Origin: Cenococcum geophilum
Taxonomy: Eukaryota
DNA length: 64,000 nt
Assembly (NCBI GenBank): GCA_050273025.1
Contig: CP158635.1
Location: forward strand, 12,276,001-12,340,000
Direction of reading: 5' to 3'
Shown here: piece after piece, positions 4,343 to 36,287 of the stretch
Layout of the letters: each line of letters starts with the position of its first letter
Position numbering within the stretch: the first letter of the stretch is position 1
Notes under the pieces: model-generated
Database searches by the model: none
What the model was told of the DNA's origin: nothing
Seen by the model: only the letters and a program-made list of their open reading frames with translations
Program-made: the position numbers and the translations under genes

Positions 4343-5148
4343 ACTAGTTAGCTTATTTTTAAGCTAGCTTAGAAATAATTGGAGCTTTTATTATTTACTA
4401 ATAAATATTAGGGGATTTAGTAGTCGTTTAGATCGTTTTAGTATAGTAGTCGGCTTAGGGTAAGTGGCTACTATAGGTTTAGGGCTCGCGTTCCGCGTAT
4501 TTATCTCTAGAGATAGCGTTTAGTCTTAAGGTCCTAGCATAGGCATCTTAAAGGCGCGGACTTTTTCTTAGAGGTCCTTAATTAATTGCTAGTATCGTGC
4601 TTCTTATTCGGCTTATTATTAATTTAAAGTGGCTTAGTTCTATTTAAGGGCGTCTATAAAAGACTTCTATATCCCTACTAATTATTCTTAGAGTGCGGAT
4701 ATAATACCGGCGGCCGTTATAGGGGCTTTAGGTTTATTCTGCATATTAACAGTAATATAGGTAGTTAACGCAACGTAGTGTTACGGAGTAAGTATAAGCG
4801 ACAATAATATATAGCAAGGTAGATATTATTAAGCTATATATATAAACTGTATAAGGAGGTTAAGACGTTATATAAAGAAAGAAGGTAGGAAAACGGGAAG
4901 AAAGGGCATATATTGTTAACTTAGTTGCTTAGTTAATACGTGCATAGGCAGAATAGGGTTTAGGTTATAGTTCTAGTAAAACTTAGCAGAATTTGGTAGA
5001 ACTTGGCAGAATATAGCAGAATGCTATAGATTGCCGTTAGATTGCTATTAGATTGCCATTAGATTACCATTTTACGGTTAGTCTCTAATTGCTAAGTCGG
5101 TAGAAATAGGTAGACGTGTATAAGGTGTTATAGGGGTGTCCCGTAACA
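4343..5148 (-). mobile_element. LTR (4779-5148) plus adjoining internal remnant of another LTR retrotransposon
   Basis: TGTTACGG at 4779 and CCGTAACA ending at 5148 form an 8-bp terminal inverted pair. The last ~120 bp match 27942-28071. Orientation and the internal nature of 4343-4778 are inferred. Confidence 0.6.
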
Positions 5149-7623: not shown

Positions 7624-7817
7624 TGTCGGGAATGAGGCAATTTGCCCTTACGTGCGGCAAATTGCCGTCACGTGAGGCAATTTGCCGTCACGTGCCGTCG
7701 TGGCACTAGCGCGGTGAGGAACCTTAAGTTCCTTACCCTCCCCTATCTAGAACAACAACCTTTTCCATTACTGTATCTACTTAAGTAGTATTAGTAATTT
7801 GCCCTGTATTTCTAATA
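7624..7817 (+). repeat. 5' LTR of the inner Copia
   Basis: Direct repeat of 13465-13658; the visible differences are C/T and G/A transitions. Starts TGTCGGGAA. Confidence 0.92.
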
Positions 7818-10800
7818 CTGATTAGTAGTTAAATACATAGTTAACTATAGACTAGCTAGGTTATTAATAGAAGAGATAGTCTCGTGTAGGGGTGCTATAT
7901 ACGCTTATATGGAATGGATCCCGGCGATACTGTACTACCTTAAACTTGCGGAAAACTAGTAATAGAAGTGTTACTAAGTACTAAGAGATACTAAGTTGCG
8001 TCTATTACGCAGAATAATCACGTTTATAAAGATTTGGTCGAGTACTTTAGGTTAAAAGTGTTACTAAACCTAAGGTCCTAAGTTGACGTCCGAAACGCGT
8101 TAAATAATATCTTAAATTGCCTACCTTTAGACAAGCAAACCTACGAGATCCTATAAAACCGAAAATCCTACCTACCTTTAACGTATAACACCTCGTCGAT
8201 TCTACCTACTATGGCGTTAACCTATCCGAAGAAGTATAAGAAAGATATTAACCCGGAGATATAGGACAGAGCCGTAACCAACTTTGTAACCGTTAAGCAA
8301 TAGGACCTAAATAGATTCTTAGTATACCGTATAGAACACTACAAAGATAGCAAATACGATAATACCGCGCTATGGTATTGTATGAAGGAGGACTTTATTA
8401 GATGGATAAAGGAAATATAGGTTCCTATAAATAAAGATATCGTATAGGACTTCCGTAACTTCCTTTAGGAGTATAGAGTATTTGTCCCTATAGATGGGGG
8501 TAGTATTAGGGACAATATTTAGGAATACGTTATTAATGCAAAGGAAGAGCATAAATGGACTCTATAAGAGATTAAGCACTAACTACGCACTATAAAGAAG
8601 CTTAAATTACGATAAAACCTAAGTAATATACTACTAAAGACGTATTCTAACTCTATCGCTTTAGGCACGAGTTCTAACATTCTATATCTATCGCCTCTAC
8701 CTCTGTCTTTAACTCCCCTGTATTAACTAGCTTAACCCACAGCCTTAATTAATAACCCCTAATAAGCGCAAGATCCCCTTACTTCGCGATCTAATAACCT
8801 TTAAACTCCGCCGACTAAATCTACGTTACTATTATAGCCTGTAATATAATATAGCTAAACACTAATTGGAGGTACCTTAAAAATGCTTACAGAGCTTATA
8901 AAGCTCTATTTAAAATAGGAGAAGAAGTTTAGCGGAGAACTGTATAATATCCTTAATTTAAAGTTATATATCTTCTATAACTGTTGCTAGAAGGTTAGAT
9001 TAGAACCTAATTAATACCATATTGCTTATTTAGTTATGCTTAAGGGCCGAGCTAGTACCTTCTATTATGATCGTTTGGTAGGAAAAGGATACGATTTTAA
9101 CTAAATGATATATAAAATAAGATGCCACTTTAAAATAGAGGAGAATAAGCAGCAGTATATGTTGGAGTAGAGAGAGACTACCTTCCTAAGAATTATTGCT
9201 ATAAACCTAGGTGCCTCTTAACTTGATTGTCTTTAAAAGCTCTTTAATTAACTCTAGATAATTTAGTGTAGTTTATCCAAATTATATTAAGAGGACTTTA
9301 GCCTGCGCGATTAAGTTATTAGCGTATACTAAGGTGTTAAAGAATGTAACCTTACTCTCTTTAACCCTATAAGTACTTATAAAGGAGTATATGCTTAATT
9401 AAGATCCTCTATCGGCACCGCCCTACGCTCTTAAGAAGTACAGCAATTTAACGCCTAACTTTAACCTACTTTAATCGACCCAGCTGACCAATATAATTAT
9501 AACTGGACTGATTAAACATATAGTGGTCGTGGTAGGGGATATAATAGAGGGTATAATTAACGTTAACTATAAAGCAATTGTGGAGGTCCTTGTGGAGGTT
9601 TATTTTGTAACAATTGGCAGAAGAAATGCTATATTTGTAAGAAGCCAAATTGCTAGTTAACTAGACACCCCCTTAATAGACAAAAGGAGGCATATAATAA
9701 GTTTCGCTAGAGCGCACGAAATATTAGAAACTAAGAAGTTACTATAGCCTACTTCTAAAGCTTCCTGGTTTAATATAAAGGCGAAGAAGATCTTAAGGGT
9801 GAGATTGACGAGGCTGAACAGCTCCTTATAGATATGGAAATTGAGGACTACTCTCCCGACTAATACTTTACTGAGTATAGTAAGGTAAATGGTATATAAA
9901 CCGTTGCTATCCTTAATAACCAATCTATACTCCATTCTATTATAAGGTTAGATATCTTTAATAAGCTAAAGGAAAGTTCCGCGTTCTCCTTTAACGACAA
10001 ATACTTAGCAAACGTCTTTTATAGTATTATGCTAGATACTGGAGCCGTAGGAGTATCTATAGTAGGAGAACCCCAAGTCCAAGCTCTTTAGCAGCTTAAT
10101 AGTTCTATTTAGATTGACTAATTAACGGCAGGCTAATATATAATTTGCTTTAGCAAGGGTATTATAATTTCTCTTGGCACAATTAAGGTCCAAACCCCGT
10201 TAGGATATATTACTTTCTATATTATTCCCGCGAACACCCCGTTCCTATTCTGCATCTAAGATATAAATAAATTAGGTGTTAAGCTTAATAACCTTAAGAA
10301 TATGCTTATCTAGGGAGATAATCGGGTGCCTGTTGTACGTAAGTAGGGTTACCCTTAGTTGCTCCTCTAATAGCTAGAAAGGAGTGTTGCTTAGAGCCAC
10401 TTAACTAAGTTAGAGCTACGTTAACTATACCGTCGTTTTGGCTACCTATCCGTTTATTAACTGCTTAGGGTCCTTTAGCGAGTAGGCTATAAAGTTAAGG
10501 CTAAGATAATTAAGTATCTTATAAAGTACTGCTATTAATGCTAAATAAACTAGAAGTCCCTAGGCCGATTTAAATTTACCCTTAAAGATAACTATAACTT
10601 TAACTTTTCTATTATTATTGATGTTATGTACCTTAGCGGTAAGCCAGTCCTCTAAGTTGTTAACTTCTTAACCTCCTTCTAAGCCGTACGTTTCTTAAGG
10701 GATATGTTGGCTAAGAATATATGGGATACTCTTTAATTATGCTAGATTAATGTCTACCTAGAACCCCCTAATTAAATTATTTATAATATAGGAAAGAACT

Positions 10801-13464
10801 TTTTATCTATAGAGTTTTAATAATAGGTAAAGGCAATGGCAATTAAGGTTAAGGAAGTCCCTATTAAGGCATATAATAGTGTTAAAAAAGTGGAGCGATA
10901 TTACGCGCTATTACGCCATGTATATAAGATTATTTCTTTAAAACTAGAAGGCGCTAGCGAAGAGCTTATCTTATAGATAGCTGTTAAGGCTGTTAACGAT
11001 TCCGCTAGCCTAGATGGGCTCGTACCTACGCTGCTAGTCTTTAGCGCCTACCCTTAAATAACTAACGATTCTCCACTATCTCCCTCTATTGTGTAATGAG
11101 CTAAGGCTATTCACAAGGCAATAAAGGAGGTACGACGTCTCTATGCTACACGCTAGGTCAACGACGTATTAGGAATAAGAAATGGCCCAAATACCTTAAC
11201 TACGCTCGATCTGCCACTCCAAGCTAAAGTACGCGTATGGCGTAAAAAGAAAAAATGGTTAGGCCCATATAAACTCATTACAATTAATGGTTAAACTTGT
11301 ATAATTTAGATGCCTTATAGACCCACTTAATTCCGTTTAACTGTTATTAAGCCCTACTATAAAGATAACAATTCTAAACCCCTGCAGGATGCCCCAGAAG
11401 ATGCCCTAGAGGATGCCCTAGAAGATGCCCCAGAGGATGCCCCAGAAGATGCCCCAGAGGAGAACCACGATCAACGTGCCCTAGAAGGCGACTACGATCC
11501 TAATACAATTGTAGTAGATGTGCCGCAACTACGACGCGGCAGAGGTCGCCCGAAGGGATCACGAAATCGCTAACATCTTGTCAATTTTAAAGAGCAATTT
11601 GTTGCTGCCATCGAGAGTGGTACTAAGTTGTTAATAGCCTTTATAACAGCTAAAGAGAAGGCTAACTTTAAGCTTGTAAAACAGCTCTAAAAGGAAGATC
11701 GTATTATAACTCTAGGAGCTCCTTTCTAAGCATCTAATAAGTAGGAGATTAACGGTCTTATTGCGAGAGGAGTCTTTAAATTTAAGAAGTATGAACCTAC
11801 TAAGTTTAATAGAGTTCGCATCTTTAAGTTAAGAATGGTTAACGAGATTAAGGGCAAAGCTACTAACGCCCTATTTAAGAAATTAAGACTGGTTATTTAA
11901 GGCTATAACAATAATAGTAAGGAGGTAATCCTTACGTAATCCCCCACGATTTAACGAGCTAGTTAGTAAGTTATTATTGCGCTAGCCCCCTCCTTAATAA
12001 AGAATAGAATGGCGGTTTATCTGCGAGATATTACCTAGGCCTATACCCAATTAGAGACGCACCTCTAGCGCTTAATATTGGCATATCTCCTAGAGCAAAT
12101 TTGCCATTAATATCCTAAAGATACAATTATGGTTGTTCTTAAGCTATTATACGGAATTATAAAGGCAGGAACTTATTAGTGGGCTACTTACAGTAAGCAC
12201 CATAAAGAGAAGCTTTTAATAACTACTTCTATATTTAATCCCTGCTTCCTTATTATAAATATAGGAACTCTATTCGGAATTATTAGCATGCAAACTAATA
12301 ATATAATTATCTTAGGTGACGACCAGTTCTTAGCTCTTAAAGAAGACGAGCTAGTAAAGGCAAATCTTATAGCGAAGCTAAAGGAAAGACTTAGTTTAAT
12401 AATACTATTGCTTTTTAATAGATGCATCCTCTCCCTAAACGAGGATTCTATTACTTTACGCTAGAAGGGTTAAGGCAAAAAGATTGAGGTTATTAACGTT
12501 AATTCTCCAAAGTAAGGATATGTGGAGCAACGCGCTTGCGGAGCTTATATTGCTTCTATTTGTTAACCTAAGGCTTCCTTTAATCTCTCTATTGCCACTT
12601 AACACCAGAAACTAATTAAGGATAATGTTCTTGCCCTAAATAAGCGTCTTTCCTGGTAAATGAACTATCTTAATTAAGGACTACTCTACGTACCTATTAA
12701 TCTTCCCACCACTAAGCTCTTCGTGTTTGTTAATAGGTCGTTTATAAATAATAAAGATTTTAGCTTCTAGCTAGGATATAAGATTATTATCGCGAACGAA
12801 TCTACCGGAGAGAATGACTTTATAATCTACGGTAATCTTATCTATTAGAGCTTAACTAAGAGTAAGCGCGTTACTTAAAGCGTTCTAGCGTTAGAGATAT
12901 ATAAAATAGTCGGCGGAGTTAATATAGTAATTGCAATCGAAACTACCTTAAAGATAATTATAGATCGACTTAAACTTCCCGTTATCCCTATAATTGTATA
13001 CACCGACTTATATTCCCTTTACGAGTGTTTAGTTAAGCTTAGTACCATAAAGAAGAAGCGCCTTATAATTAATATTATAGCACTATAGCAATCTTACGAG
13101 CGTTAAGAACTCTTTAAGATTTAATAGATTAATGGCTAAGATAACCCGGTAGATATAATGACGAAGGCAAACCTAAATAAGGCGCTAGAGACGTTTGTTA
13201 ATATAAATACTCTATATATACGAGTTAAAGGTTAGGTTAAGAGGGAATAGAAGATGCGGCGATGGCCGCTAAGGCGCTAGTGGTAAGCGAGCTAATAGCG
13301 ATTTTCTATACCGGGTATGGAAAATTATAATTGGCTGGTAGAAGTCCGGGTCAGCAGAATAAGGTATGTTACCTACCAAAGTCTGCTATATTCTACCTAC
13401 TGTTATATTATTATATACGGTCTGTTTACATATAGATAGTAACTATAAAAAGAAGAGTTGCCAG

Positions 13465-13658
13465 TATTGGGAATAAGGCAATTTGCCCTTATATGCGGCA
13501 AATTGCCATCACGTAAGGCAACTTGCCGTTACGTGCCGTCGTGGCACTAGCGCGGTAAGGAACCTTAAGTTCCTTACCCTCCCCTATCTAGAATAACAAC
13601 CTTTTCCATCACTGTATCTACTTAAGTAGTATTGGTGATTTGCCCTGTGTTTCCAATA
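13465..13658 (+). repeat. 3' LTR of the inner Copia
   Basis: Direct repeat of 7624-7817; follows the purine tract AAAAAGAAGAG; followed by the TSD GGAAG. Confidence 0.92.
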
Positions 13659-15340
13659 GGAAGGTTATATTATAACTCCTAGAGCTCCTTTCTAAGTATC
13701 TAATAAGTAGGAGATTAATAGTCTTATTATAAGAGGAGTCTTTAAATTTAAGAAGTATAACCCTACTAAGTTTAATAAAGTTCGTATCTTTAAGTTAAGG
13801 ATAGTTAATAAGATTAAGGGCAAGGCTACTAACGCCCTATTTAAGAAATTAAGGCTTATTATCTAAGGTTATAACAATAATAGTAAGGAGATAATTCTTA
13901 TATAATCTCCTATGATTTAACGAGCTAGTTAGCAAGTTATTATTATATTAGCTCTCTCCTTAATAAAGAATAAAATAGTGGTCTATTTATAAGATATTAC
14001 TTAGGCCTATACCTAATTAGAGACGCACCTTTAGCGCTTAATATTAGCACACCTTTTAGAGTAAATTCGCTACTAATATCCCAAAGATATAATTATAGTT
14101 ATGCTTAAGCCATTATATAAAATTGCAGAGGTAGGAACTTATTAGTGGGCTACCTATAGTAAGCACTATAAAGAGAAGCTTTTAATAACTATATCTATAT
14201 TTAATCCCTACTTCCTTATTATAACCATAGGAACTCTATTTAGAATTATTAGTATATAAACTAATAATATAATTATCTTAGGAGATAACTAATTCTTAGC
14301 TCTTAAAGAAAATAAGCTAGTAAAGGTAAATCTAATAGTAAAACTAAAGGGGAAGCTTAATTTAATAATACTATTGCTCTTTAATAGATATATCTTCTCC
14401 CTAAATAAGGACTTTATTGCTTTACGCCAGAAGGGTTAAGGTAAAAAGATTAACGTTATTAATGTTAATTCTCTAAAGTAAGGATATATAGAGTAATGCG
14501 CCTATAGAGCTTATATTGCTTTTATCTATTAACCTAAAGCTTCCTTTAATTTATCTATTGCCGCTTAATATTAGGAACTAACTAAGGATGATATTCTTAC
14601 CCTAAATAAGCGTCTTTCCTAGTAAATAAACCACCTTAATTAGAGACTACTCTATATGCCTATTAATCTTCCTACCGCTAAGCTCTTTATATTTATTAAT
14701 AGATTATTTATAAATAATAAAGATTTTAGCTCCTAGCTAGGATATAAGATTATTATTACAAATAAATCTACTAGAGAGAATAACTTTATAATCTATAGTA
14801 ATCTTATCTATTAGAGCTTAACTATAAGTAAGCGTATTACTTAAAGCGTTTTAGCATTAGAGATATATAGAATAGTTAGCGGAGTTAATATAGCAATTAT
14901 AATTAGAACTACCTTAAAGATAATTATAAATCGACTTAAACTTCCCGTTATCCCTATAATTGTGTATACTAACTTATATTCCCTTTATAAGTGTCTAGTT
15001 AAGCTTAGTACTATAAAGGAGAAGCGCTTTATAATTAATATTTTAGCACTTTAGCAATTTTATAAGTATTAAGAACTCTTTAAAATTTAATAGATTAATA
15101 GCTAAGATAACCTAGTAGATATAATAACAAAGGCAAACCTAAATAAGGTACTAAAGACGTTTATTAATATAAATACTCTATATATATAAGTTAAAGGTTA
15201 GGTTAAAAAGGAGTAGGAGTATAATATTCTGTAAACCCTAGCTTAAACTAGCTAATTAGGATTTTCTATTCCCGGGATAGAAAATCACTATTAGCTCGCT
15301 TATTACTAGCGCCTTAGCGGTCCTCCTAATAAGATATCTA

Positions 15341-18300
15341 TCACATATCTAGGGGGGTTATTTAGCACGGTTACGACCCGGGTTAATACGAGGTTAGGGC
15401 CACCCCTACTAATAACGCGCCCGAACCCCGCACTTAGTCGCGCAGCGACCGCCCCTAAGTACCCTCGCACGCGATTTTAGGCGAAAAGGTATATAATTTA
15501 AGTTTGATCGGTACTTCTAGGCGGTCGCGTAATGTTGCTTTAAATTTGAAATATTTATACTGTAGTGACCAAGACGCCTTAATATAGGACTATACTCTAG
15601 TAACCAAGACATCTTAATATAGGACTGCGCTATAGTCACTGCAGTCCTATATTAAGGCGTTTTAGTTACTATAGTCCTATATTAAGGCGTCTCGGTCACT
15701 ATAGTGCAGTTATATATTAAGGCGTCTTAGTTACTACAGTTATATATTAAGGCGTCTTGGTTACTATAGTACAGTCCTATATTAAAACGTCTCGGTCATT
15801 AATATAGTCTTATATTAAGACGTCTTATTTACCATAGTGCACTTATATATAAAGGCGTCTTGGTTAGTCACCGTAGTGCAGTTATATATTAAGGCGTCTT
15901 AGTTACTATAGTAAAATAACTATTTAAATATTCTTATAAAGCCAATTTAAAGAATGCCGACCTCATAGCTATTCTAGCTAGTTAATAGCCTATCTCTTAT
16001 CTCTCGCCGTACCGTCTTCTACGCGCCGTCTTATATCCTTAATTATCCTACGGCGACGGCTATAAAATATAGCCTCGCTATTAACCCGCCAGCGCGCCCC
16101 CTAGCAGCGATTAAGAGCTTTAATTAACGGCCCACCTACTAGTTCTAAAGTCCACTCAGCCCAGAGCTAAAACACTAAATTACCGCCCTAAAGCATCTTA
16201 TATTTCCTTAGCGGCGCCTATAGGTTAAGAATAAATAAAAGAGGTTAAGTGTTAGCTTACGGCAGCTGCGGCAAAGGTATAGTAAAAGCTTACGGTAGCT
16301 GTAGCGGGGGTATAATAAAAGCTTACGGCAGCTACTATAGGGGTATAGTAGACGTTATAGTAGACGTTATAGTAAACAGCTAAGCAGGCTCTACGGCGGT
16401 AGATAGTTAAGGACCCCTTAGTATCTCTATAGGGGTTAAATATATAGAAGAGGGTTTATCTAAAGACGGAATCTAGCTGTTAACGCGTTTAGGAATGGAC
16501 GTAGGTATAAATATAAATATAGGTGCGGGTATAGGTACGGGTATAAAGCCATCTAAAGACGGCCGTATAGACTCCGTAGGCCCTATCTAAATACCCGTCT
16601 TCCCTTACTAGATTTATATAGGTGCGAATAATACTAATAACCTTTCTATCTCGCTAAGGCGTTCTAAGATCGTTTGTATACGTAATTAAACCCCCTTTAT
16701 CTCTAAAATCGCGGCCTTATATCTTAGCTTAGCTACGGCCTTATAAGTAGGCCAGTATTTCCACATTATTATCTTATCTAGTATAACTACGCTAGCTAGC
16801 AAGCTTTCTACCCATGTAGTGAACCTCTAGTACTCCTTACAGCCAAAAAGGGGGTCCTTTTATAGAGGGTAGAGCGGGAACTGCTTATATAGAATTACTA
16901 AGTCCTATAATAGGATTACCCTAAGCGTATAGAGGAGGCGTAGAAATCCTAAGCCTATAAGGTTAAGCCGTACAACCTTATTATCTGCCCTCTTTGGGTA
17001 GTAGGTCTCTATATATTTTAGCTAGATATTAGTCTTAGGCTATATCTTTAAACAAAGTACCTCCTCTGGCACCTTTTGTGTGCGGGGAAAAAAGTAGCCC
17101 TTTTCTTTCTTTAGGAAGCTAGTAATTAACCGCATAAACGCATAGGGTAGATAGCTAAGGTAGGCTCCTATTATTACGTCCGTATTCTAGCGTCCGGCCT
17201 ATCTAATTTAGGTCTCCTTAACGCCACTAAGCTTAGTATGCTGGACGCTCTACTTATAGGCGCTATAAGTCTTCTCTTTTAAATAAATCCCTACCCCCTA
17301 GAATATCTTTTTATTCTATTTAAACTGCGTATAATAGCTTAACGGCCGTTATAGTACTTTAATACTACTAGGGAAGATATATAGGCTGTAGTAGTTCTCT
17401 AGCTGCTAAAAGGATAGGAAGCTCTTAGCGCCGTCCTTACCCTAGTAGTTAAAGAAGTAAAAGGCTATTATAAAGAGAGGGTAAAGGATAGGGTTAGTAT
17501 TGCGTATATAGCCTATATACTTAACCTTACCGTGCTGATTCTACTTCCCTTATATTATTAATATAATTATATACGGCGCTAACTTGTCTAGTTTAGGCCC
17601 TTTATTCTCTAGTTTAATAAGGACAAAGTTAGCAAGCTAAACGTCCTATCTACTTTTACCCTAGGTAACAGTAGTATAGCCTAAGGAATAGGTTAGAAAA
17701 CAGCAGCTGTATAAACTAGATAGGGTATATATAAACCTAATAAATGCTCAGCTATAGTTTAAAGGTAAGACTTAATTAAGCCTAGCTTCTTAAAGCCCGT
17801 CTCCTAGTACTAAGTAATTGCCTTTTTAAGCCCTTTAACGTCGTAGCCACTAGTAATTATAAATAGGCCTTAATTAATAAAGTTAACGCGTTAAATCCGG
17901 TCCTTATTACGGCAGACACTATCTAGTACCACTAAGAGCTTTGCCCCCTACAGTAGCTATAAGGTCTTACCTTCTAACTACTATATATAGAGCTTAGTAA
18001 TAGTGGAGACGTAGCTATTTATAACTAAGTATTAGACCATCTCATTAAATAGGGCGTTTAGGGCCTCCTTATCCCATATCTCTTCCTCCTTTATAGCTTC
18101 CTCCCCTATAGCTACGGCTGCCCCTACAGCTGCCTTTCTCCCTAGCGGCCCTCCTACGGTTATCTTCTACCTCTTCTTTACCCACTCGCCATCTTTCTAT
18201 ATCTCTTTCTATTTTAACTTTCATTTTTAATAGCTAGCAGCCCACAATTCTTAATTAATAACTTACTGCTCTAAAAATAGGTAAAGCTTATCTTCCGTTA

Positions 18301-18920
18301 CCTAGGCGCCGTCCGTATTACCTTCTAATCTTATATACTAGTCTTCTTACTCTTTCTACTTTAGCTTATACGCCCTTAAGGTATTCTTTAAGCGCTAGGC
18401 CTTATAAATATCCTATAGCTGTACTATCTAGGCCTTAAATTCGTTCTAGAGAAGGCTAGGGGGGCTTCCGTAGTAGACCGTAGGGTAAGAAGATTCTTAA
18501 GGGACTTTATATCCATAAAAGGTAAAGGGGTAGACGCGTAAGCGCGGTATAAGTAAATAAAGCTACTAAACACGTAAATATTAATGGAGAAGGAGAAGAA
18601 GAGGGCTCTATATTATAGAATTAAAATTATAATAGGCCTTTCTATATAAAATTAAAAGCCCTACGTAAGCTAAAAGCTAACGCGGGTATAAAAATAGTAG
18701 AAGGTTAAAAAATAGAATTGTTAAGGCAATAGTAAGGTTAATAGCGCGCGATAAGGACCTCTATACTAACCTAGTACTAACCTAGGCCTTAAAAACACGT
18801 CCGAAAAGTAGGGGCCACTATTAAAGGGGGGGGGTAATATTTAAACAATATATTAAAGACCTTAGGGGGTTATATGTAACCTAAGGTTATACTAAGCTTA
18901 ACCCAGACCTCTAATACCTA
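15341..18920 (-). mobile_element. Crypton (tyrosine-recombinase DNA transposon) copy 1, RIP-inactivated, 3580 bp
   Basis: Minus-strand relic ORF ~18580-15926. It contains KEKT(H)SA...(A)(E)LSGV(E)ET(Q)IR(R)AGR(W)NTD, a Crypton YR/NDC10-II-like segment at ~17170-17280. The C-terminus YKML.GGN.V..LWAEWT.....GP.I.AL....GARWR...EA.FYSRRRRII (~16030-16205) is GCR1_C-like. No TIRs or LTRs; short boundary direct repeat GATA(T/C)CTA. Confidence 0.88.
15560..15912. repeat. Crypton subterminal array: 2 inverted + 8 direct 30-35-bp units (also at ~19140-19492 and ~22754-23106)
   Basis: The unit AGTCCTATATTAAGGCGTCTTGGTCACTA (with RIP variants) is read directly from the sequence; the first two units are its reverse complement. 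Confidence 0.9.
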
Positions 18921-21900
18921 TTACATATCTAGGGGGGTTATTTGGCGCGGTTATAACCTAGGTTAATATAAGGTTAGGGCTACCCCTGCTAATAATACGC
19001 CCAAACCCCATACTTAGTCGCGCAGCAACCGCCCCTAAGTACCCTCGCACGCGATTTTAGGCGAAAAGGTATATAATTTAAGTTTAATTAGTACTTCTAG
19101 GCGGTCGCGTAATGTTACTCTAAATTTAAAATATTTGCACTATAGTAACCAAGACGCCTTAACGTAGGACTATACTCTAGTAACTGAGACGTCTTAATAT
19201 AGGACTGCGCTATAGTTACTATAGTCCTATATTAAGGCGTTTTAGTTACTATAGTCCTATATTAAGGCGTCTTAGTTGCTACAGTGCAGTCGTATATTAA
19301 GGCGTCTTAGTTACTGTAGTTATATATTAAGGCGTCTTAGTTACTACAGTACAGTCCTATATTAAGACGTCTTAATTACTAGTATAGTCTTATATTAAGA
19401 CATCTTGTTTACTATAGTACACTTATATATAAAGGCGTCTTAGTTAGTTACCGTAGTACAGTTATATATTAAGGCGTCTTAGTTACTATAGTAAAATAAC
19501 TATTTAGATATTCTTACAAAGCCAATCTAAAGAATGCTGACCTTATAGCTGTTCTAGCTAGTTAATAGCCTATCTCTTATCTCTCGCCATACCGTCTTCT
19601 ACGCGCTATCTTACATCCTTAATTATCCTACGGCGACGGCTATAGAACATAGCCTCGCCGTTAACCCGCTAGCGCGCCCCCTAGCAGCAATTAAGAGCTT
19701 TAATTAATAGCCTACCTGCTAGCCCTAAAGTCCACTTAGCCTAGAGCTAGAATACTAAATTACTGCCCTAGAGCATCTTATATTTCCTTAGCAGCGCCTA
19801 TAGGTTAAGAATAAATAGAAGAGGTTAAGCGTTAGCTTATAGTAGCTGCGGTAGGGGTATAGTAGAAGCTTGCAGTAGCTATAGCGGGGGTATAGTAAAA
19901 GCTTACAGCAGCTACTACGGGGGTACGGTAGATGTTATAGTAGACGTTATAGTAAACGGCTAAGTAGGCTCTACGGCGGTAGACAGTTAAGGACCCCTTA
20001 GTATCTCTATAGGGGTCGGATATATAGGAGAGGGTTTATTTAAAGACGGAATCTAGCCGTTAATACGTTTAGGAATGGATATAGGTATAGGCATAAGTAT
20101 AGGTATAGGTATAGGTATAAGTATAGGGCCGTCTAAAGACGGCTATATAGACTCCGTAGGCCCTATCTAGATACCTGTCTTCCCTTACTAGATCTATATA
20201 GGTGCAAATAATACTAATAACCTTTTTATCTCGCTAAGGCGTTCTAAGATTGTCTATACGCGTAATTAAACCCCCTTTATCTCTAAGATCGCGGCCTTAT
20301 ATCTTAGCTTAGCTACAGCCTTATAGGCGGGCCAGTATTTCCGCATTATTATCTCATCTAGTATAACTACGCTAGCTAACGAGCTTTCTACCTACGTGGT
20401 AAACCTCTAGTACTCCTCATAGCTAAAGAGGGGGTTCTTCTATAGAGGGTAGAGCGGGAACTGCTTACGTAAAATTACTAAGTCCTATAATAGGATTACC
20501 CTAAGCATATAAAGAAGGCGTAAAAATCCTAAGCCTATAAGGTTAAGCCGTATAACTTTATTATCTGCCCTCTCTAGGTAGTAGGTCTCCATACATTTTA
20601 GCCAGACGTTAGTCTTAGGCCATATCTTTAAATAGAGTACCTCCTCCGGCACCTCCTATACGCGGGGAAGAAAGTAGCCCTTTCCTTCCTTTAGGAAGCC
20701 GGTAATTAACTATATAAACGCACGGAGTAGATAGCTAAGGTAGGCTCCTATTATCGCGTCCGTATTTTAGCATCTGGCCCATTTAATTTAGATCTCCTTA
20801 ACGCCGCTAAGCTTAACGTACTAGACGCTCTACTTATAGGCACTATAAGTCTTCTCTTTTAAATAAATCCCTACCCCCTAAAATATCTTTTTATTCTATT
20901 TAAACTGCGTATAATAGCTTAACGGCTATTACAGTACTTTAATACTACTAGGGAAGATATATAGGCCGTAGTAGTCCTCTAACTACTAAAAGAATAGGAA
21001 GCTCTTAGCGCCATCCTTACCCCAGCGGTTAAAGAAGTAGAAGGCTATTATAAAGAGAGGGTAAAGAATAGGGTTAGTATTGCGCATATAGCCCATATAC
21101 TTAACCTTGCCGTGCTAATTTTACTTCCCTTATATTATTAATATAATTATACACGGCGCTAACTTATCTAGTTTAGGCCCTTTATTCTCTAGTTTAATAA
21201 GGATAAGGTTAGCAAGCTAAACATCCCATCTACTTTTACCTTAGGTAATAGTAGTATAGCCTAAGAAACGGGTTAAAAAACGGCAGCTATATAGACTAGA
21301 TAGGGTATATATAAACCTAATAAATACTTAGCTACAGTTTAAAGGTAAGACTTAATTAAGCCTAGCTTCTTAGAGCCTATCTCCTAGTACTAAGTAATTG
21401 CCTTTTTAAGCCCTTTAACGTTATAGCCACTAGTAATTATAAATAGGCCTCAATTAATAAAGTTAACGCGTTAAATCCGGTCCTTATTACGGCGGACGCT
21501 ATCTAGTACCGCTAAGAGCTTTGCCCCCTACAGCGGCTGCAAGGTTTTACCTTCTAACTACTATATATAGAGCTTAGTAATAGCGGAGACGTAGCTATTT
21601 ATAACTAAGTATTAGACTATCTCATTAAATAGGGCGTCTAGGGCCTCCTTATTTTATATCTCTTCCTCCTTTATAGCTTTCTCCCCTATAGCTACGGCTG
21701 CCCCTATAGCTACGGCTGCCCCTATAGCTGTCTTTCTCCCTAGCGGCCCTCCTGCGGTTATCTTCTACCTCTTCTTCGCCCGCTCGCTATCTTTCTATAT
21801 CTCTTTCCGTTTTAACTTCCGTTTTTAATAGCCAGCGGCCCGTGATTCTTAATTAATAACTTACTGCTCTAAAAATAGGTAAAGCTTATCTTTTGTTACC

Positions 21901-22534
21901 TAGGCGCCGTTTATATTACCTTTTAGTCTTATATACTAGTCTTCCCACTCTTTCTACTTTAGCTTATACGCCCTTAAGGTATTCTTTAAGCGCTAGGCCT
22001 TATAAATATCCTATAGCTATACTATTTAGGCCTTAAATTCGTTCTAGAGGAGGCTATAGGGGGAGGAGGCTAGGGGGGCTTCCGTAGTAGACTATAGGGT
22101 AAAAAGATTCTTAAGGGACTCCATATCTATAAGAGGTAAGGGGGTAGATATATAAGCGCGGTATAGGTAAATTAAGCTACCGAACGCGTAAATATTAATA
22201 GAAAAAGAGAAGAAGAGGGCTCTATATTATAGAATTAGAATTATAGTAGGCCTTTTTATATAAAATTAGAAGCCCCACGCGAGCTAAAAGCTAGCGCGGG
22301 CATAAAAATAGCAAAGGGTTAGAAAATAGGATTATTAAAGCGATAATAAGGTTGATAATACGTAATAAGGACCTTTATACTAACCTAGTACTAACCTAGG
22401 CCTTAAAAACGCGTCTAAAAAGTAGGGGCCACTACTAAAGGGGGGGGGTAATATTTAAACGATATATTAAAGACCTTAGGGGGTTATACGTAACCTAAGG
22501 TTATACTAAGCTTAACCCAGACCTCTAATACCTA
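18921..22534 (-). mobile_element. Crypton copy 2, 3614 bp
   Basis: Direct head-to-tail repeat of copy 1; has a 16-bp segment that copy 1 lacks (~22050) and an extra 18-bp unit (~21700). Confidence 0.88.
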
Positions 22535-25500
22535 TTATATATCTAGGGGGGTCATTTAACGCGGTTATAACCCGGGTTAATATAAGGTTAGGGCTACCTC
22601 TATTAATAACACGCCCAAACCCCATACTTAGTCGCGCAGTAACCGCCCCCAAGTACCCTCGCACGCGATTTTAGGCGAAAAGGTATATAATTTAAGTTTA
22701 ATTAGTACTTCTAGGCGGTCGCGTAATATTACTCTAAATTTAAAATATTTGTACTATAGTAACTAAGACACCTTAATATAGGACTATACTCTAGTAACTA
22801 AGACGTCTTAATATAGGACTGCGCTATGGTCACTACAGTCCTATATTAAGGCGTTTTGGTTACTATAGTCCTATATTAAGGCGTCTTAGTCACTGCAGTA
22901 CAGTTGTATATTAAGGCGTCTTAGTTACTATAGTCATATATTAAGGCATCTTAGTTACTACAGTGCAGTCCTATATTAAAACGTCTTGGTTATTAGTATA
23001 GTCTTACATTAAGACGTCTTATTTACTATAGTGCACTTATACATAAAGGCGTCTTAGTTAGTTACCGTAGTACAGTTATATATTAAGGCGTCTTGGTTAC
23101 TATAATAAAATAACTATTTAGATATTCTTATAAAGCTAATCTAAAGAATACCAACCTCGTAGCTATTCTAGCTAGTTAATAGCCTATCTCTTATCTCTTA
23201 CTATACCGTCTTTTACGCGCCGTCTTATATCCTTAATTATCCTACGTTAGGAAAACGGGAGGGTAGTAGGGGCTAGCCAGGGGCTAGCCCGGGGCTAGCC
23301 CGGGGTCATTTCAGCTGGATCCGCTAATCTGCTCATATACACTTATTTACGCTAGCCTAAGGCTAGCCCGGGGCCATATTAGCAACATTAGCACATTTTA
23401 TACGTTTTATACGTTTTATACATTTTATACGTTTTATATATTTTATATAATATTTCCTATAGCTGCAATATATATAATTATAATAAAATTCAAAATTCAA
23501 AATTCAAAATTCAAAATTCAAAAATTTAAAATTAATAGTAGCTATAAGGGATATCTCTCGCAGAGTTTCCAAATCATCAATTGGCGGCGTTCCCAATAAT
23601 CCGCCGGCCATGTACTGATTTCCTAACTAGGCCTAGTGCCTGTCCTGCCTGTCCTACCTATCCTACCTATCCTACCTGTCCTACCTGTCCTACCGTCTAA
23701 CCGTCCTACTTATTCATACCTACCTATCTATGCCTGCCGGTCGTGCCTACTTGTCTATGCCTACCTGTCTGTATCTATAATTTAGGGGAGAGGTCGGCCC
23801 GATCAAAGGCTCTGCTTAATTTAATTGCGATTAATTATATTAATTCGAATCGTTCTCTCTGGGCGTTCGCTGGCTGTACGTTTAAACGGTGGTCGTCTAG
23901 GGTACCTCCCTAAGAGGCCTTAATTCGATTTGATTTGGTAATGGGATAATATCAAGGCTCTAGTTCGATTCGATCGATCGATTGAATTAATCGTGGTATT
24001 TGCTGGCTGGTCGTTTAAACGATTATCGTCTGGCTCTAGCAGCGGTCGTCTGGTTCTAGCGACGGTCGTCTAGTTCTGGCGACGGTCGTCTGGTTCTGGC
24101 GACGGTCGTCTGGTTCTAGCGACGGTCGTCTAGTTCTGGTCACAGTCCTCTAGCTACCGTTCTGGTGCCTCCCTAAGTAGGGAGGATATAAGGAAGGAAG
24201 GAAGGGTAAAGGTGGCATTTAGGTGTACAAGGGGTATGCAAAGGCACATATAGAGGCTGTCGGGAATATAGCGGGGACCCGATGGTACTTCGGACGATTT
24301 AGATGATAAGGAAAATTAAAGTCCTGCTAGGAGCCTGCTAGGAAGCCTGCTAGGAGCCTGCCCGGAGGCCTTTAGGATTTTAATACCCTAATAGCAATAA
24401 ATACAATAATAGTAATAATATTTATTTTATAGCTATAAGCTAGTATAGTGCTAGCGTATAGCTCTAGGGCTTAGCTAATATGGCTAAAAGCTAGCCCTAG
24501 GCTAGGGGGGGTTAGCTAATATAGCTAAAAGCTAGCCCTAGGCTAGGGGGGGTTAGCTAATATGGCTAAAAGCTGGCCCCGGGCCAGGGGGGGTTGGCTA
24601 ATATGGCGGAAAGCTAGCCCCGGGCCCTAAAAACACTTTTAGCGAAACCAAATTTCCTGCGCCACTTCCCGTTTTCCTGACGTACGGCGACGGCTATAGA
24701 ATATAGCCTCGCCGTTAACCCGCTAATACGCCCCCTAGCAGCAATTAAGAGCTTTAATTAACAGCCTACCTACTAGCCCTAAAGTCCACTTAGCCTAGAG
24801 CTAGAACACTAAATTACCGCCCCAAAGCATCTTATATTTCCTTAGCGGCGCCTATAGGTTAAGAATAAATAGAAGAGGTTAAGCGTTAGCTTACGGCAGC
24901 TGCGGTAGGGGTATAGTAGAAGCTTACAGTAGGTACGGCGGGGGTATAGTAGAAGCTTACGGCAGCTACTATAGGGGTATAGTAGACGTTATAGTAGACG
25001 TTATAGTAGACGGCTAAGTAGGCTCTACAGCGGTAGATAGTTAAGGACCCCTTAATATCTCTATAGGGGTTAGATATATAGGAGAGGGTTTATTTAAAGA
25101 CGGAATCTAGCCGTTAATACGTTTAGGAACGGACGTGGGTATAAGTATAGGTATAGGTACGGGCATAGGTACGGGTACAGGGCCGTCTAAAGACGGCCGT
25201 ATAGACTCCGTAGGCCCTATCTAGATACCTGTCTTCCCTTACTAGATCTATATAGGTGCGAATAATGCTAATGACCTTTTTATCTTACTAAGGCGTTCTA
25301 AAATCGTCTACACGCGTAATTAAACCCCCTTTATCTCTAAGATCGCGGCCTTATATCTTAGCTTAGCTACGGCCTTATAGGCGGGCCAGTATTTCCGTAT
25401 TATTATCTTATTTAGTATAACTACGCTGGCTAGCAAGCTTTCTACCCACGTAGTAAACCTCTAGTACTCCTTACAGCTAAAGAGGGGGTCCTTCTATAGA

Positions 25501-27570
25501 GGGTAGAGCGGGAACTACTTATATAGGATTACTAAGTCCTATAATAGGATTACCCTAAGCACACGGAGGAGGCGTAGAAATCCTAAGCCTATAAAGTTAA
25601 GCCATACAACCTCATTATCTGCCCTCTCTGGGTAGTAGGTCTCTATATGTTTTAGCCAGATATTAGTCTTAGGCCATATCTTTAAATAAAGTACCTCCTT
25701 CGGTACCTCCCGTGCGCGGGAAAAAAAGTAGCCCTTTCCTTCCTTTAGGAAGCCGGTAATTAACCGTATAAATATACGGGGTAGATAGCTAAGGTAGGCT
25801 CCTATTATCGCGTCCGTATTCTAGCGTTCGGCCTATCTAATTTAGGTCTCCTTAACGCCGCTTAGCTTGGCATGCCAGACGCTCTACTTACAGGCGCTAT
25901 AGGTCTTCTCTTTTAAATAAATCCCTACCCCTTAGAATATCTTTTTATTCCATTTAAACTGCGTATAATAGCTTAACGGCTGTTACAGTACTTTAATACT
26001 GCTAGGGAAGATATATAGGCCGTAGTAGTCCTCTAGCTACCAAAAGGATAGGAAGCTCTTAGCGCTATCCTTACCCTAGTAGTTAAAGAAGTAGAAGGCT
26101 ATTATAGAGAGAGGGTAAAGGATAGGGTTAGTATTGCGCATATAGCCCATATACTCAACCTTACCGTGCTAATTCTACTTCCCTTATATTATTAATATAA
26201 TTATATACGGCGCTAACTCGTCTAGTTTAGGCCCTTTATTCTCTAGTTTAATAAAGATAAGGTTAGCAAGCTAAACATCCTATCTACTTTTACCTTAGGT
26301 AACGGTAGTATGGCCTAAGGAACGGGTTAGAAAATGGTAGCTATACGGACTAGATAGGGTATATATAAACCTAATAAATACTTAGCTACAGTTTAAAGGT
26401 AAGACTTAATTAAGCCTAGCTTCTTAGAGCCCATCTCCTAGCACTAAGTAATTACCTTTTTAAGCCCTTTAACGTTATAGCTACTAGTAATTATAAATAG
26501 GCCTTAATTAATAAAGTTAACGCGTTAAATCCGGTCCTTATTACGGCGGACGCTATCTAATACCGCTAAGAGCTTCGCCCCCCGCAGCGGCTATAAGGTT
26601 TTACCTTCCGACTACTATATATAGAGCTTAGTAATAGCGGAGACGTAGCTATTTATAACTAAGTATCGGACCGTCTCGTTAAATAGGGCGTTTAGGGCCT
26701 CCTTATCCTATATTTCTTCCTCCTTTATAGCTTCCTCCCCTATAGCTGCGGCTGCCCCTACAGCTGCCTTTCTCCCTAGCGGCCCTCCTGCGGTCGTCTT
26801 CTGCCTTTTCTTCGCCCGCTCGCCATCTTTCCATATCTCTTTCCGTTTTAACTTCCGTTTTTAATAGCCAGCGGCCCACAATTTTTAATTAATAACTTAC
26901 TGCTCTAAAAATAGGCAAAGCTTATCTTCCGTTACCCAGGCGCCGTCCGTATTACCTTCTAGTCTTACGCACTAGTCTTCCCACTCTTTCTACTTTAGCT
27001 TATACGCCCTTAAGGTATTCTTTAAGCGCTAGGCCTTATAAATATCTTATAGCCGTACTGTCTAGGCCTTAAATTTGTTCTAGAGGAGGCTATAGGGGGA
27101 GGAGGCTAGGGGGGCTTCCGTAGTGGACTGTAGGGTAAGAAGATTCTTAAGGGACTCTATATCCGTAAGAGGTAAAGGGGCAGACGCGTAAGCGTGGTAT
27201 GGGTAAATAAAGCTACTAAACGCGTAAATATTAATAGAGAAGAAAAAGAAGAGGGCTCTATATTATAGAATTAGAATTATAGCAGGCCTTTCTATATAAA
27301 ATTAGAAGCCCCGTATAAGCTAGGAGCCAGCGCAGGCACAAAAATAGTAGAGGGTTAGAAAATAGGATTATTAAGGCAACGGTAAGGTTAATAGCGCGTA
27401 ACGAGGACCTTTATACTAACCCAGTACTAACCTAGGCCTTAAAAACGCGTCCGAAAAGTAGGGGCCACCACTAAAGGGGGGGGGTGATATTTAAACGATA
27501 TGTCGAAGACCTTAGGGGGTTGTGCGTAACCTAAGGTTATGCCAAGCTTAACCCGGACCTCCGATACCTA
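22535..27570 (-). mobile_element. Crypton copy 3 (3596 bp without the insertion), interrupted by a TIR element
   Basis: Direct repeat of copies 1 and 2; the sequence resumes exactly (TA|CGGCGACGG) after 24682; ends GATACCTA at 27570. Confidence 0.88.
23245..24682. mobile_element. Non-autonomous Tc1/mariner-superfamily-like TIR element, 1438 bp
   Basis: TIR CGTTAGGAAAACGGGA ... TCCCGTTTTCCTGACG. TA is duplicated (23243-44, 24683-84) relative to the empty site ATCCTACGGCG in Crypton copies 1 and 2. No transposase ORF; the interior is built from short tandem repeats. Confidence 0.85.
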
Positions 27571-27732
27571 CCTATAACTCCTAAGTAAGAAAGCACTATA
27601 TGCTAAGAAGTAAATTTTAGGATAGCGAGACTTATATTATAATGGCAATAGTAAGTAAAGAGGATTAATATTTATTACGCTAGTCGAGCAGTATATATAT
27701 ATAGATAGCAACCACAAAAGAAGAGTTGCTAG

Positions 27733-27935
27733 TGTTAGGAATATAGGCAAGTTGCCGTTACGCGAGGCAAGTTGCCGTCACGTGAGGTAAGTTACCGTCA
27801 CGTGTTGCCGCGGCACTAGCGTGGCGAGGAGCCCTAAGCTCCTCGCCCTTCCTTAAGGAAGAAGGAAAAATAGAATAACAACCATTATACTATCTGCAAC
27901 CTGTAGATACGTGATATCACCTTATGAAACCAACA
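27733..27935 (+). repeat. Copia-type LTR (probable 3' LTR of the outer Copia)
   Basis: Follows the same purine tract as 13465, starts TGTTAGGAA, and shares the GGCAAGTTGCCGTCACG repeats and GGCACTAGCG with the inner LTRs. The right end (CCAACA) is approximate. Confidence 0.7.
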
Positions 27936-28071
27936 ATAACAGATTGCCGTAGATTATCATCAGATTGCCGTCAGATTGCCGTTAGGTTGCTATCTCGTGG
28001 TCGGTCTCTAATTGCTAAGTTGGTGGAAACAGGTGGACATGTGCAAGGTGTTACGGGGGTGTCCCGTGACA
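27936..28071 (-). repeat. LTR fragment of the 4779-5148 family
   Basis: Matches ~5030-5148, is less RIP-mutated, and ends CCCGTGACA. Confidence 0.75.
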
Positions 28072-28423
28072 ATGGGTCCCTATCGTTAAAATACCTACCA
28101 ATAGTCTTACTAAAATCCTACCTTATTAAAAGCATGAAGCATAGATAAAGTAATTAAATTTGGTGGATATTTAATATTAGATTACTACCGCTAGTAAAGA
28201 CGCTTAAATATTCTACTAACCCTAATTTAAATTAACTAATTAGGATTTTCCATGCCCGGTATGGAAAATTGCTATTAGCTTGCTTACTACTAGCGCCTTA
28301 GCGGCCCTCGCGATCTCTACCTTTGCTACTTCTAAATTATATCTAATTTCCTATTTTGGTATAGTCTCTACCTTTATTCTTATTTTCTACAGCTTTTAAC
28401 TACACCGTTAAATCTGGGGGGGG

Positions 28424-34236: not shown

Positions 34237-36287
34237 CTATGAAATACAAAGGCCTAAGACATAATCAATCCATTCAGCTTGTACCTCAAGCTCTAGTTTT
34301 CGGCAGTCTCGAAGTATACTCGCGATGTAACTGCGATGCTCCTCTAAAGCAGAATTTCCAGCAACATACCTATCCTTAGCTATCTGAAGATGTATTCCTG
34401 CAAGGACTCCAAGAGATATTATGCAGGCTTGTTTGCTAACGTCGTTAGGCAACGAACTTTGAAGATTGCACAGCCCTTCCTTTGCTGCATCCCAAGTGCC
34501 CTTAGCGCTAGCCAATTCCCATTCCTGCCACCATAGCTGATCGTCCATGGCATCACAGTTGTGGCGACTTTCGCTGTCATGGTCTCTAAGATTTATATCT
34601 GCAAGTAGCAATTCTTTCCCTATTTTTTTGGACCAATTGGGGAAGTATCGTATCGCTTCATAAATAGGAAGATTTCCTGAAAGATCACGGAGCATTGGAT
34701 GGGCTCCTTTGGCTAATAACAATTTGACAGCCTCCGTAGCGCAGCTTCCGTCATTCGACTTTGTCGTAAGCAGCGTCATTAAAGGAGATTGACCAGAAAG
34801 ATTCAGCCGATTGGGATCTGCGCCTTGGCGCAAGACAATCTTAAGTAGGGTTATGCTGCTAGTGGATTTATCCGGGAGTTTTCTATGGTTCATCAAAACT
34901 GCGTGTAGCAAATAGCTGCCATCCGCACCTACTTTGCTTGGGTCTCCAGCTTTACAGAGCCGCTTTACTAAATCGAAACTTCCAGTTCGGGAAAATAAGA
35001 GCTCGGATAAATAGTCATGAGGCAATACCTTTCCCGAGCGTAACCGAACGTCCAGACTCGCTCCTTTGCTCAAGAAACGCCGAAAGTTCAAGTTGTAAAT
35101 CAACGTATTTGTCCAAAGCGCCCCCGACTTTTCCAAGAATATCTCAAAAGGAAGTTTGTTTTCTCGAGTACGTAATGAAATGTCTGGCTCGGAATCCAAA
35201 AATACCTCCAAGTACACCCCTGTATACTTGCACTCGGTTGGTTGGTCCACGATCATGTGGAAAGGCGTAACTCCAGCTATATTGGCAATATTGACATCTG
35301 CACCCGCATCCAGCAGCAGTGGAATAACGGTAAGGGAAGGTAATCTTTCCATGTCGGCTAGAGATATTGCCAGATGAAGCGGGGTATCGCCTTTGTCATC
35401 CTGGCAGGAAACGATTACGGGTCGCTTAAGCAAAGCTTCCAGCATTGCCTTATAGTACACAGACATGTGCAAAGGCGACCTTCCATCCTGTCCCTTCGAA
35501 TCGAAATCGGCTCCGAATTCCAGCAAAAGTTCGGCAATTTCAACGAAATACCCAAGTATAGCATAGTGTAAAGGTTGATTGTTAGCATGATCTTTCAAGT
35601 TCACAGCCGCACCACTGATAAGCAATTTCTGAACCAACTCTTTCGACCCGTTAATGACCGCCCGATGAAGCCGCGTTCTGCCGTCATTGTCTTGTGTATT
35701 TGAGCTTAGGATACGACTATCCTGTTGAGGAAGACTAGCTCCGGTTATGGCTTGACTGAAATCAGAGTAGTTATTTTGTGAAGGGCCTGCGACATTTTCC
35801 GCGGGTGTGTGAAATTCCCATGGCTCTGTTTCTTGGGGGTATGTTTCTAATAGAGTCGGCATGGATGAGAGGCTGTATCCAGAGCGAGAAAGCTCATCAG
35901 TATAATATTGATGGTGAATGAAGACTGAATAGTACGTACTGGAAAGGGGCCCATTGACTTGTCACTGTGGCTGTTGAGGTAGAATGACCTGTACGAAGCC
36001 CTCTACTAGTAGGTAATCCTAGCCTAGCGCTCCTCGATTCCCTAGGACGATGCGCGTAGAAACTTTCGGTGTTGTATTTCATGTATCCCCATTTACGGAG
36101 CTGGGTCCTGTAGGAACGTACGCTGTACTCTTGTTACTATATCTTCAACGGATTGAGCATTCCGAACTTACGAGGCATGAAAACTATGTTTCCCTTTCAT
36201 GAGTCTCATCACCTCAAGTAGGGTCTTATTTTCAGTCTTGTATAATTTTCGAATCTCCTCTTTTACATCGTCCCATTCCTTTGGCAT
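34237..36287 (-). CDS. Clr5-domain + ankyrin-repeat protein (3 exons)
   Basis: Exon 1 MPKEWDDVKEEIRKLYKTENKTLLEVMRLMKGKHSFHAS is spliced (intron 36171-36123) to VRSYRTQLRKWGYMKY, matching the Clr5 N-terminal pattern. The 541-aa last exon has repeated GRTRLH/QPLH/GRSPLH/GDTPLH/GVTPFH ankyrin motifs. Confidence 0.82.

Follow-up and report, generated by a model that had tools for sequence, protein, structure and literature searches.

A head-to-tail trimer of RIP-inactivated CryptonF copies in Cenococcum geophilum and its single-core junctions

In a 64,000-nucleotide stretch of the Cenococcum geophilum genome (contig CP158635.1; below, the window means this whole stretch), positions 15333-27570 form a trimer in which ~3.6-kb units follow one another exactly head to tail with zero spacer, as seen by self-comparison. 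By its domain architecture and its ends the unit is a CryptonF DNA transposon, a member of a known group. The unit boundaries are exact, a single core lies at each junction, and repeat-induced point mutation (RIP), a fungal defence against repeats, later inactivated all three copies. As the best explanation overall, we judge it probable that this trimer, which sits in a repeat of an ascomycete genome, became an array through the element's recombinase or through a circular form. To our knowledge, no class of eukaryotic DNA transposons is less well understood than Cryptons, which have ends that are hard to define and have been seen to move in one organism only. The transposon as such is ordinary, a dead representative of a known group; together with independent copies, the array offers a base-level view of where one fungal family starts and stops, of its predicted closed-circle junction and of its target, and in this family the sides of the core can be assigned to element or target.

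Three units meet at single cores

An earlier note on this DNA, made from the letters alone, had described three Crypton units joined without spacer, terminal inverted repeats (TIRs) or long terminal repeats (LTRs). Self-comparison bears this out: no LTRs were found, and no inverted or long direct repeats at the very termini of the units, the only inverted similarity being subterminal. The note's sizes for the first two units (3580 and 3614 bp) were reproduced, and the four octamers it had marked fall at exactly the same positions. Its size for the third unit (3596 bp) did not hold. U3 measures 5,043 bp because a nested 1,438-bp element, unmentioned in the note, interrupts it; without that element and one TA, about 3,603 bp are left. 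The units and cores are as follows.

15334-18913, minus strand: unit 1 (U1), RIP-degraded CryptonF copy, 3,580 bp, 68 stops in the open reading frame (ORF) segments
18914-22527, minus strand: unit 2 (U2), 3,614 bp, 72 stops in the ORF segments
22528-27570, minus strand: unit 3 (U3), 5,043 bp, 61 stops over three segments
15333-15340, minus strand: outer core at the element 3´ end, GATATCTA on the plus strand and TAGATATC in gene orientation, position 4 of the target type
18913-18920, minus strand: inner junction core between U1 and U2, AATACCTA, the RIP form of GATACCTA
22527-22534, minus strand: inner junction core between U2 and U3, AATACCTA
27563-27570, minus strand: outer core at the element 5´ end, GATACCTA on the plus strand and TAGGTATC in gene orientation, element type

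Pairwise identity among the three units is 90-91%, and the homology between them begins and ends at the octamers, with a single core between the 5´ start of U1 and the 3´ end of U2 in gene orientation. U1 carries a 16-bp deletion close to the start of its ORF. The octamer GATAYCTA is not rare in the window (10 matches vs 9.6 expected); its placement at the array, on both outer edges and once at each inner junction, is non-random.

Independent copies share the ends of the tandem unit

A scan of metagenome contigs gave 40 related loci, 10 of which match the unit at 77-85% DNA identity over all or most of its length. All nine 5´ ends that could be counted (L005, L007, L016, L023, L024, L032 and the window, with L011 and L012 from a second subfamily) read, in gene orientation, (N)AGGTATC and then GGAGGTC.. 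or GAGGGTC.., and what lies upstream is unrelated; L007 reads AAGTATC. Likewise, all ten 3´ ends (L019, L021, L023, L024, L028 twice and the window, with L011, L012 and L001 from the second subfamily) read ..GATATGTG(A/T)TAG, followed by variable NTATC-like sequence and unrelated flanks. The 3´ counts exclude L005 and L016, whose 3´ ends are truncated, and L009, a member of a more distant group. The terminal direct repeat is short and alike in all copies, unlike a copy-specific target-site duplication.

Judged by this comparison, the ends of the tandem unit are exactly those of the mobile element. The earlier note had set plain segmental duplication against its own reading, with the boundaries of other copies as the point to check. 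Since these independent insertions, drawn from two subfamilies, have the same ends as the tandem unit, a segmental duplication with arbitrary breakpoints is ruled out. Because the boundaries recur in other copies, the inner junctions, which read ..GATATRTAA-TAGGTATT-AGAGGTC.., also equal the junction expected of an excised circle, as the earlier note had supposed. Each inner junction would then represent the two ends of one element joined through a single core, the predicted circle junction.

Copies of the second subfamily (L011 202-3810, L012 632-4195, L001 1-3233) start with the same AGGTATC and end with TTAG. They are 97-99% identical to one another and show no sign of RIP; this subfamily was therefore probably active recently in the sampled environment.

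The relic gene encodes a Cre-like recombinase with a GCR1_C domain

All six frames of U2 were read with X at stops and searched against Pfam, which located both domains that the earlier note had seen in the relic ORF, on the minus strand. The resulting features and the gene models are listed here.

20410-21288, minus strand: NDC10_II (tyrosine-recombinase-fold) domain of the U2 relic, E 9.3e-21, residues 414-706 of the frame starting at 22527
19549-19782, minus strand: GCR1_C DNA-binding domain of the U2 relic, E 4.1e-4, 21 bits, under the Pfam cut-off of 23
22124-21315, intron 21314-21265, 21264-19504, minus strand: U2 relic gene
27160-26369, intron, 26318 down to the nested element, resuming below 23244, minus strand: U3 relic gene

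The last and shortest U3 segment, which holds 5 of the 61 stops, is read out of frame. Searched against a large protein collection, the U3 reading returned four proteins at 55-57% identity, all four with both domains (GCR1_C = PF12550). Among these, P0002 (778 aa) appears to be full-length and matches NDC10_II at 6e-56 and GCR1_C at 1.8e-17 (63.9 bits), with a faint Phage_integrase match. A tblastn search of P0002 on the window gave an identical two-exon model in every copy, with an intron of ~50 nt, bounded by GT and AG with a CTAAC/CTGAC branch site between them, that is conserved in less mutated relatives.

Relatives of this protein are numerous (3,263 at E <= 0.001 by HMMER among 1.84 billion representatives). 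We aligned 44 of them, made up of the longer matches and the four close relatives, and examined the catalytic positions: R265 is kept in 41, K304 in 44, H398 in 38, and R401, W424 and Y433 in 43 each. The spacings are 3 from H to R, 23 from R to W and 9 from W to Y, which we take to be those of Cre. A profile of the four proteins gave only a marginal sequence match to Ndc10 in the PDB (E 0.29), so a fold search was needed. With an AlphaFold model of P0002 (mean pLDDT 83.4), this search returned Ndc10 (E 9e-10), numerous structures of Cre (E from 1.4e-4; target TM 0.56-0.68), Flp and XerH; the Ndc10 and Cre matches at E 9e-10 and 1.4e-4 have a target TM of 0.63-0.68. Pfam gave no match to DUF3435, the Starship Captain family, in the relic or in P0002. 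The element is thus modelled as carrying a single gene with one short intron, for a predicted Cre-like tyrosine recombinase of the NDC10_II fold fused to GCR1_C. The recombinase and GCR1_C matches anticipated by the earlier note were accordingly found in the relic, with GCR1_C below its cut-off there, and in P0002, whose predicted fold agrees.

RIP inactivated all three copies

Across 3,580 gap-free columns of the three units, 507 are variable, and all but 3 of these, which are transversions, are transitions (504). Among C/T columns, 172 of 240 have A or A/G as the next base, a CpA preference. The TpA/ApT ratio of the units is 1.85-2.03 and the (CpA+TpG)/(ApC+GpT) ratio 0.32-0.46, values beyond the usual RIP thresholds. 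By these signatures the differences between copies are RIP, and since nearly all variation consists of transitions, the copies were almost identical beforehand. Private changes number 112, 104 and 57 in the three units.

The same process accounts for the state of the gene, which, as the earlier note had said, RIP filled with stops (61-72 per copy). Among aligned codons, 79-85% can be derived from the P0002 residues by C>T/G>A changes alone, compared with 17-22% in a shuffled control. At the catalytic codons of the three relics, K and Y survive, and R, H, R and W (4/6) carry RIP-type changes. On this reading of their codons, all three copies are dead. The de-RIP consensus that the earlier note had envisaged fell short: the three-copy consensus has no open frame of 100 codons, and a de-RIP call anchored on U2 still leaves 82 stops in the gene frame. 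No more than 24 CpA/TpG sites have stayed intact in U1, U2 and U3 alike; RIP is saturated, and the consensus therefore does not restore the ORF. The relic gene was instead read copy by copy with X at stops.

A probable short exchange segment within the attachment site

The two sides of the core behave differently at the two ends of the element. At 5´ junctions, core position 4 is G in 9/9 (8 independent cases if L032 and the window share ancestry), and among the ten 3´ junctions six have A, two T and two G. Both ends are visible in five insertions, and the three that are informative all have the element type at the 5´ end and a variant at the 3´ end. The window follows the same pattern, with A in the outer 3´ core and G in both inner cores and in the outer 5´ core. 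Random resolution of a heteroduplex predicts the target base in ~40% of 5´ junctions; it was seen in 0/9 (0.6^9 ~ 0.01). In the second subfamily, homology stops right after TTAG, the next bases being GTATC, ATGTC and ATAGTC. Over the 3´ junctions, TATC is followed by T in 8/10 cases.

The simplest reading of these junctions is that the strictly shared segment comprises AG/TAG only and that the remaining core reflects a loose target preference. Also on the simplest reading, the element would always supply GTATC at the 5´ junction, and the target NTATC at the 3´ junction. The obligatory exchange segment is then probably (T)AG, 2-3 bp rather than the full 8 bp, beside a loosely conserved motif on the recombinase side. 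The earlier note had read the octamers as one short crossover sequence and had asked whether flanks share its core; its location stands, its length of 8 bp probably does not, and of the shared core the 5´ AGGTATC is kept while the 3´ side varies beyond TAG.

We propose that a circle junction of the form ...GATATGTGA-TAG-GTATC-GGAGGTC... would recombine, conservatively and site-specifically, with a target resembling TAGNTATCT, strand exchange taking place in or beside the TAG step. An exchange at TAG would leave the element's GTATC at the 5´ junction and the target's NTATC at the 3´ junction.

A site resembling such a target lies 640 bp to the right of the array, where, at 28301-28326, a left flank, one core-like octamer and a right flank align in order with those of the array.

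28312-28319, minus strand: paralogous unoccupied site, octamer GATCTCTA, between homologues of the array's left and right flanks

This site, a paralogue and not a true empty allele, has the target-type base at core position 4. It replaced another paralogue, 13337-13430, which was rejected as an empty site for its poor alignment beside the core. The left flank was also considered as a fragment of a fourth unit, as GGAGGACCGC resembles the element start GGAGGTCC; this was rejected, the stretch being part of a repeat that recurs at 28207-28309 and 13257-13359. The other 3´ flanks contain nothing resembling the element start.

How the array may have formed

The reading that we favour is that the recombinase used sites which the element had itself regenerated. 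A circle could have entered a resident copy, by the recombinase or by homologous recombination; attL could have been exchanged with attR between sister chromatids; or a multimeric circle could have integrated. The step from dimer to trimer could equally be an ordinary unequal homologous exchange. The three copies would have been near identical at the onset of RIP, which would then have inactivated them. In favour of the element's enzyme, the ends coincide exactly and both inner cores carry the element-type base. Furthermore, as described in the main text of Lopez-Cortegano et al. 2023 (PMC9977147), an active CryptonF catalyses rearrangements at its target motif and gains copies despite excision.

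Several observations weigh against this account or are neutral. A junction made by the recombinase is indistinguishable in sequence from one made by host exchange between flanking cores, and the sequence agrees equally well with recombinase or circle routes and with unequal exchange by the host at the cores. No head-to-tail junction was found in the 40 related metagenome loci (0/40); as assemblers collapse identical tandems, this absence is weak evidence. Unrelated repeats nearby are tandemly duplicated with a period of 1,966 bp, so host-made duplications do occur in this neighbourhood. The junction counts are small and drawn partly from RIP-affected copies. At sites where six comparison copies agree, 45 RIP-type changes are common to all three units vs 4 reverse transitions, and the k-of-3 distributions of RIP are over-dispersed; the shared excess fits either RIP saturation or RIP that preceded triplication. 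Given the 82 stops, the copies also cannot show whether the founder was active when the array formed. The circle-integration reading of the earlier note is thus upheld as far as ends and junctions go, and its route of formation is a matter of probability.

One alternative, which we regard as rather unlikely, is that the recombinase was uninvolved: after a single Crypton insertion, unequal exchange between sister chromatids or replication slippage at the 8-bp cores would have produced a dimer, and unequal homologous recombination of the 3.6-kb units a trimer. The outer cores match at 7/8 bases, so that microhomology is present, host exchange yields the identical junction, another tandem duplication of RIP-affected repeats adjoins the array, and no other head-to-tail junction occurs among the related loci. 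However, an imperfect homology of 8 bp is rarely used in comparison with site-specific recombination at an enzyme's own sites. The recombinase route requires both inner cores to be of the element type, whereas host exchange allows either base, although these two cores amount to at most one or two independent observations. Quite improbable, in our estimate, is the one-step integration of a trimeric circle that had become multimeric through rolling-circle replication, theta replication or recombination of circles with one another. Such a concatemer would give the identical structure from units near identical before RIP (3 transversion columns in 3,580), and the active CryptonF of Chlamydomonas rises in number despite excision by what the main text of PMC9977147 calls a "complex mode of transposition". 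Against this, Crypton circles are not directly known to replicate, none of the 40 loci has the terminal overlaps of a circle-like contig, and the junction pattern had 0 matches in viral contigs; in its product, a concatemer is also indistinguishable from stepwise formation.

That the trimer is an assembly artefact and the chromosome holds fewer copies, copy number being known here from the assembly alone, we consider extremely improbable. Artefactual copies would be expected to be identical, whereas these differ by ~10% pairwise, have private indels, and include an element nested in U3 only. The distinct RIP pattern of each unit (the private changes above) likewise argues against an artefact, and with such differences between copies a collapsed or expanded assembly appears unlikely.

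Taken together, the array and the junctions could be read more broadly. Crypton transposition may regularly produce, or pass through, head-to-tail multimers, formed by the recombinase on regenerated sites or from replicated circles, by an enzyme that needs only 2-3 bp of identical (T)AG and acts with strict direction, leaving the element-type core at the 5´ end and the target-type core at the 3´ end, unlike the homology-dependent 6-8-bp overlap of classical tyrosine recombinases. We offer this joint reading tentatively and think it unlikely to hold in full. If true, multimer formation would explain how an element with a "cut-and-paste" recombinase gains copies. The head-to-tail junction provides a simple search signature for fungal genomes that bears on whether multimers help Cryptons multiply, and naturally intact relatives make a biochemical test of the junction possible.

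Comparison with known systems

In bacteria, SXT/R391 arrays and polylysogens are tandem integrative elements and prophages made by an integrase at attL/attR. As proposed for the array described here, a tyrosine-recombinase element regenerates its attachment sites, so that a second copy can enter next to the first, and the inner junction then equals attP. Those systems are prokaryotic, with accessory factors and arm sites that are well defined, of a kind not known for Cryptons.

CryptonF elements of fungi and oomycetes were reportedly treated by Goodwin and colleagues in 2003. The group combines a tyrosine recombinase (YR) with GCR1_C and has ~6-bp terminal direct repeats that serve as recombination substrates (Kojima & Jurka 2011, PMC3212892); this architecture and the short conserved terminal repeats also appear in the parts of PMC3212892 and PMC8969392 that we drew on. 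The window element resembles these elements in its one gene encoding a YR with C-terminal GCR1_C, its lack of TIRs and LTRs, its conserved short terminal direct repeats and its size of ~3.6 kb. It differs in that three copies stand head to tail, all killed by RIP, and in that the repeat looks 7-8 bp long in this insertion with only AG/TAG strictly common across insertions.

A close parallel is CryptonF-1_cRei of Chlamydomonas reinhardtii, which, according to Lopez-Cortegano et al. 2023 (PMC9977147), is active, has CACCG ends, targets CAYCG, and increases in copy number although it excises cleanly. In both elements the terminal motif approximates a degenerate target (CACCG vs CAYCG there, TAGGTATC vs TAGNTATC here), one position within the core is degenerate, and site-specific recombination is the model. 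CryptonF-1_cRei has been seen moving, whereas the element in the window is a fossil whose activity is deduced. The passages of PMC9977147 that were searched contain no mention of tandem insertions of CryptonF-1_cRei, and our literature search, which took in passages of PMC3212892 and PMC9977147, turned up no description of head-to-tail Crypton arrays.

Budding yeast Ndc10/Cbf2 and Gcr1, domesticated proteins derived from Cryptons, are the best Pfam and structure matches. According to the portion of Kojima & Jurka (PMC3212892) used here, they are without the catalytic residues, in contrast to the intact relatives of the window element, which keep R-K-H-R-W-Y. Starship elements of the Pezizomycotina, with their Captain (DUF3435), are also YR-driven fungal DNA elements with a short target motif; they differ in being giant and cargo-carrying and in using a different protein family. 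The array is a further example of a known element type in an unusual state, not a new kind of element.

Subterminal repeats and a nested element

Inverted similarity inside the ends was scored against shuffled sequence. The subterminal score is 20 for U2 (shuffle maximum 13), 14 for L023 (13) and 12 for L011 (14), and L011 has a terminal direct-repeat score of 15 vs 12 in shuffles. The subterminal scores arise because short pairs, TTAACCCGG/CCGGGTTAA and CGTAACC/GGTTACG, are set 10-50 bp in from the ends, not at the termini; these pairs flank the closed junction on both sides. Further in, each unit has a repeat array, and U3 has the nested element.

15556-15913; 19139-19493; 22752-23101, no strand: 30/35-bp repeat arrays, subterminal, downstream of the ORF, one per unit
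23245-24682, no strand: nested non-autonomous TIR element, 1,438 bp, 18-bp TIRs CGTYAGGAAAACGGGARG, TA duplicated at 23243-23244 and 24683-24684

The 30/35-bp repeats run in both orientations, 220-590 bp from the 3´ end of each unit. The array is kept in the relative L016 (3877-4052) and absent from the subfamily B locus L011, and the repeats may be candidate protein-binding sites. The nested element breaks the GCR1_C coding part of U3; as it is missing from U1 and U2, it was inserted after the array had formed. It contains internal tandem repeats of 20, 41 and 9 bp, related pieces occur in the metagenome loci L024 and L019, and by its TA duplication it looks Tc1/mariner-like.

Flanks and other features of the window

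The flank beside the element 5´ end belongs to a repeat family.

27571-27939, no strand: flank beside the element 5´ end, part of a repeat family, the same flank being found in L032 with a Crypton at the same position

L032 (2863-3258) shares 369 bp of this flank and holds a Crypton of the same family at the identical point of the repeat. The nested insertions of that copy differ: ~6.4 kb lie after element base 160, and another insertion follows base 2284. The common position may reflect a single insertion inherited by both or a target that was used more than once.

RIP-affected repeats flank the array at 5458-15325 and 27696-28309. Within them, 5458-7623 resembles 9484-11697, and 11686-13336 resembles 13652-15296 (tandem, period 1,966 bp). 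By eye only, their translations look like Ty1/copia-type gag-pol, with a zinc knuckle and an RT-like stretch; Pfam returned 0 families at E <= 0.01 for the flanking repeats at 5001-15333 and a match at chance level only for 11650-13336. A palindrome at 15244-15302 (GGATTTTCTATTCCCGGGATAGAAAATC and its surroundings) lies just left of the array and recurs in the paralogues 13266-13361 and 28207-28309.

At the far end of the window, direct repeats at 53268-54030 and 63240-64000 (86% identity, ~10 kb apart) lie in AT-rich, strand-skewed sequence, and the region between them matches L005, L016 and L028 at 75-87%. This is probably an LTR retrotransposon, large and affected by RIP, which continues past the edge of the window. 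A 1,053-codon open frame at 44069-47230 (minus strand) has 58-63% GC vs 29-50% in the rest of the window and matches no Pfam family. Ordinary eukaryotic genes stand beside the repeat-rich part, namely those for an ankyrin-repeat protein (34237-35961, minus strand), a glutamine-dependent NAD synthetase with CN_hydrolase and NAD_synthase exons (39764-41749, minus strand) and a SNARE-domain protein (52032-52682, plus strand).

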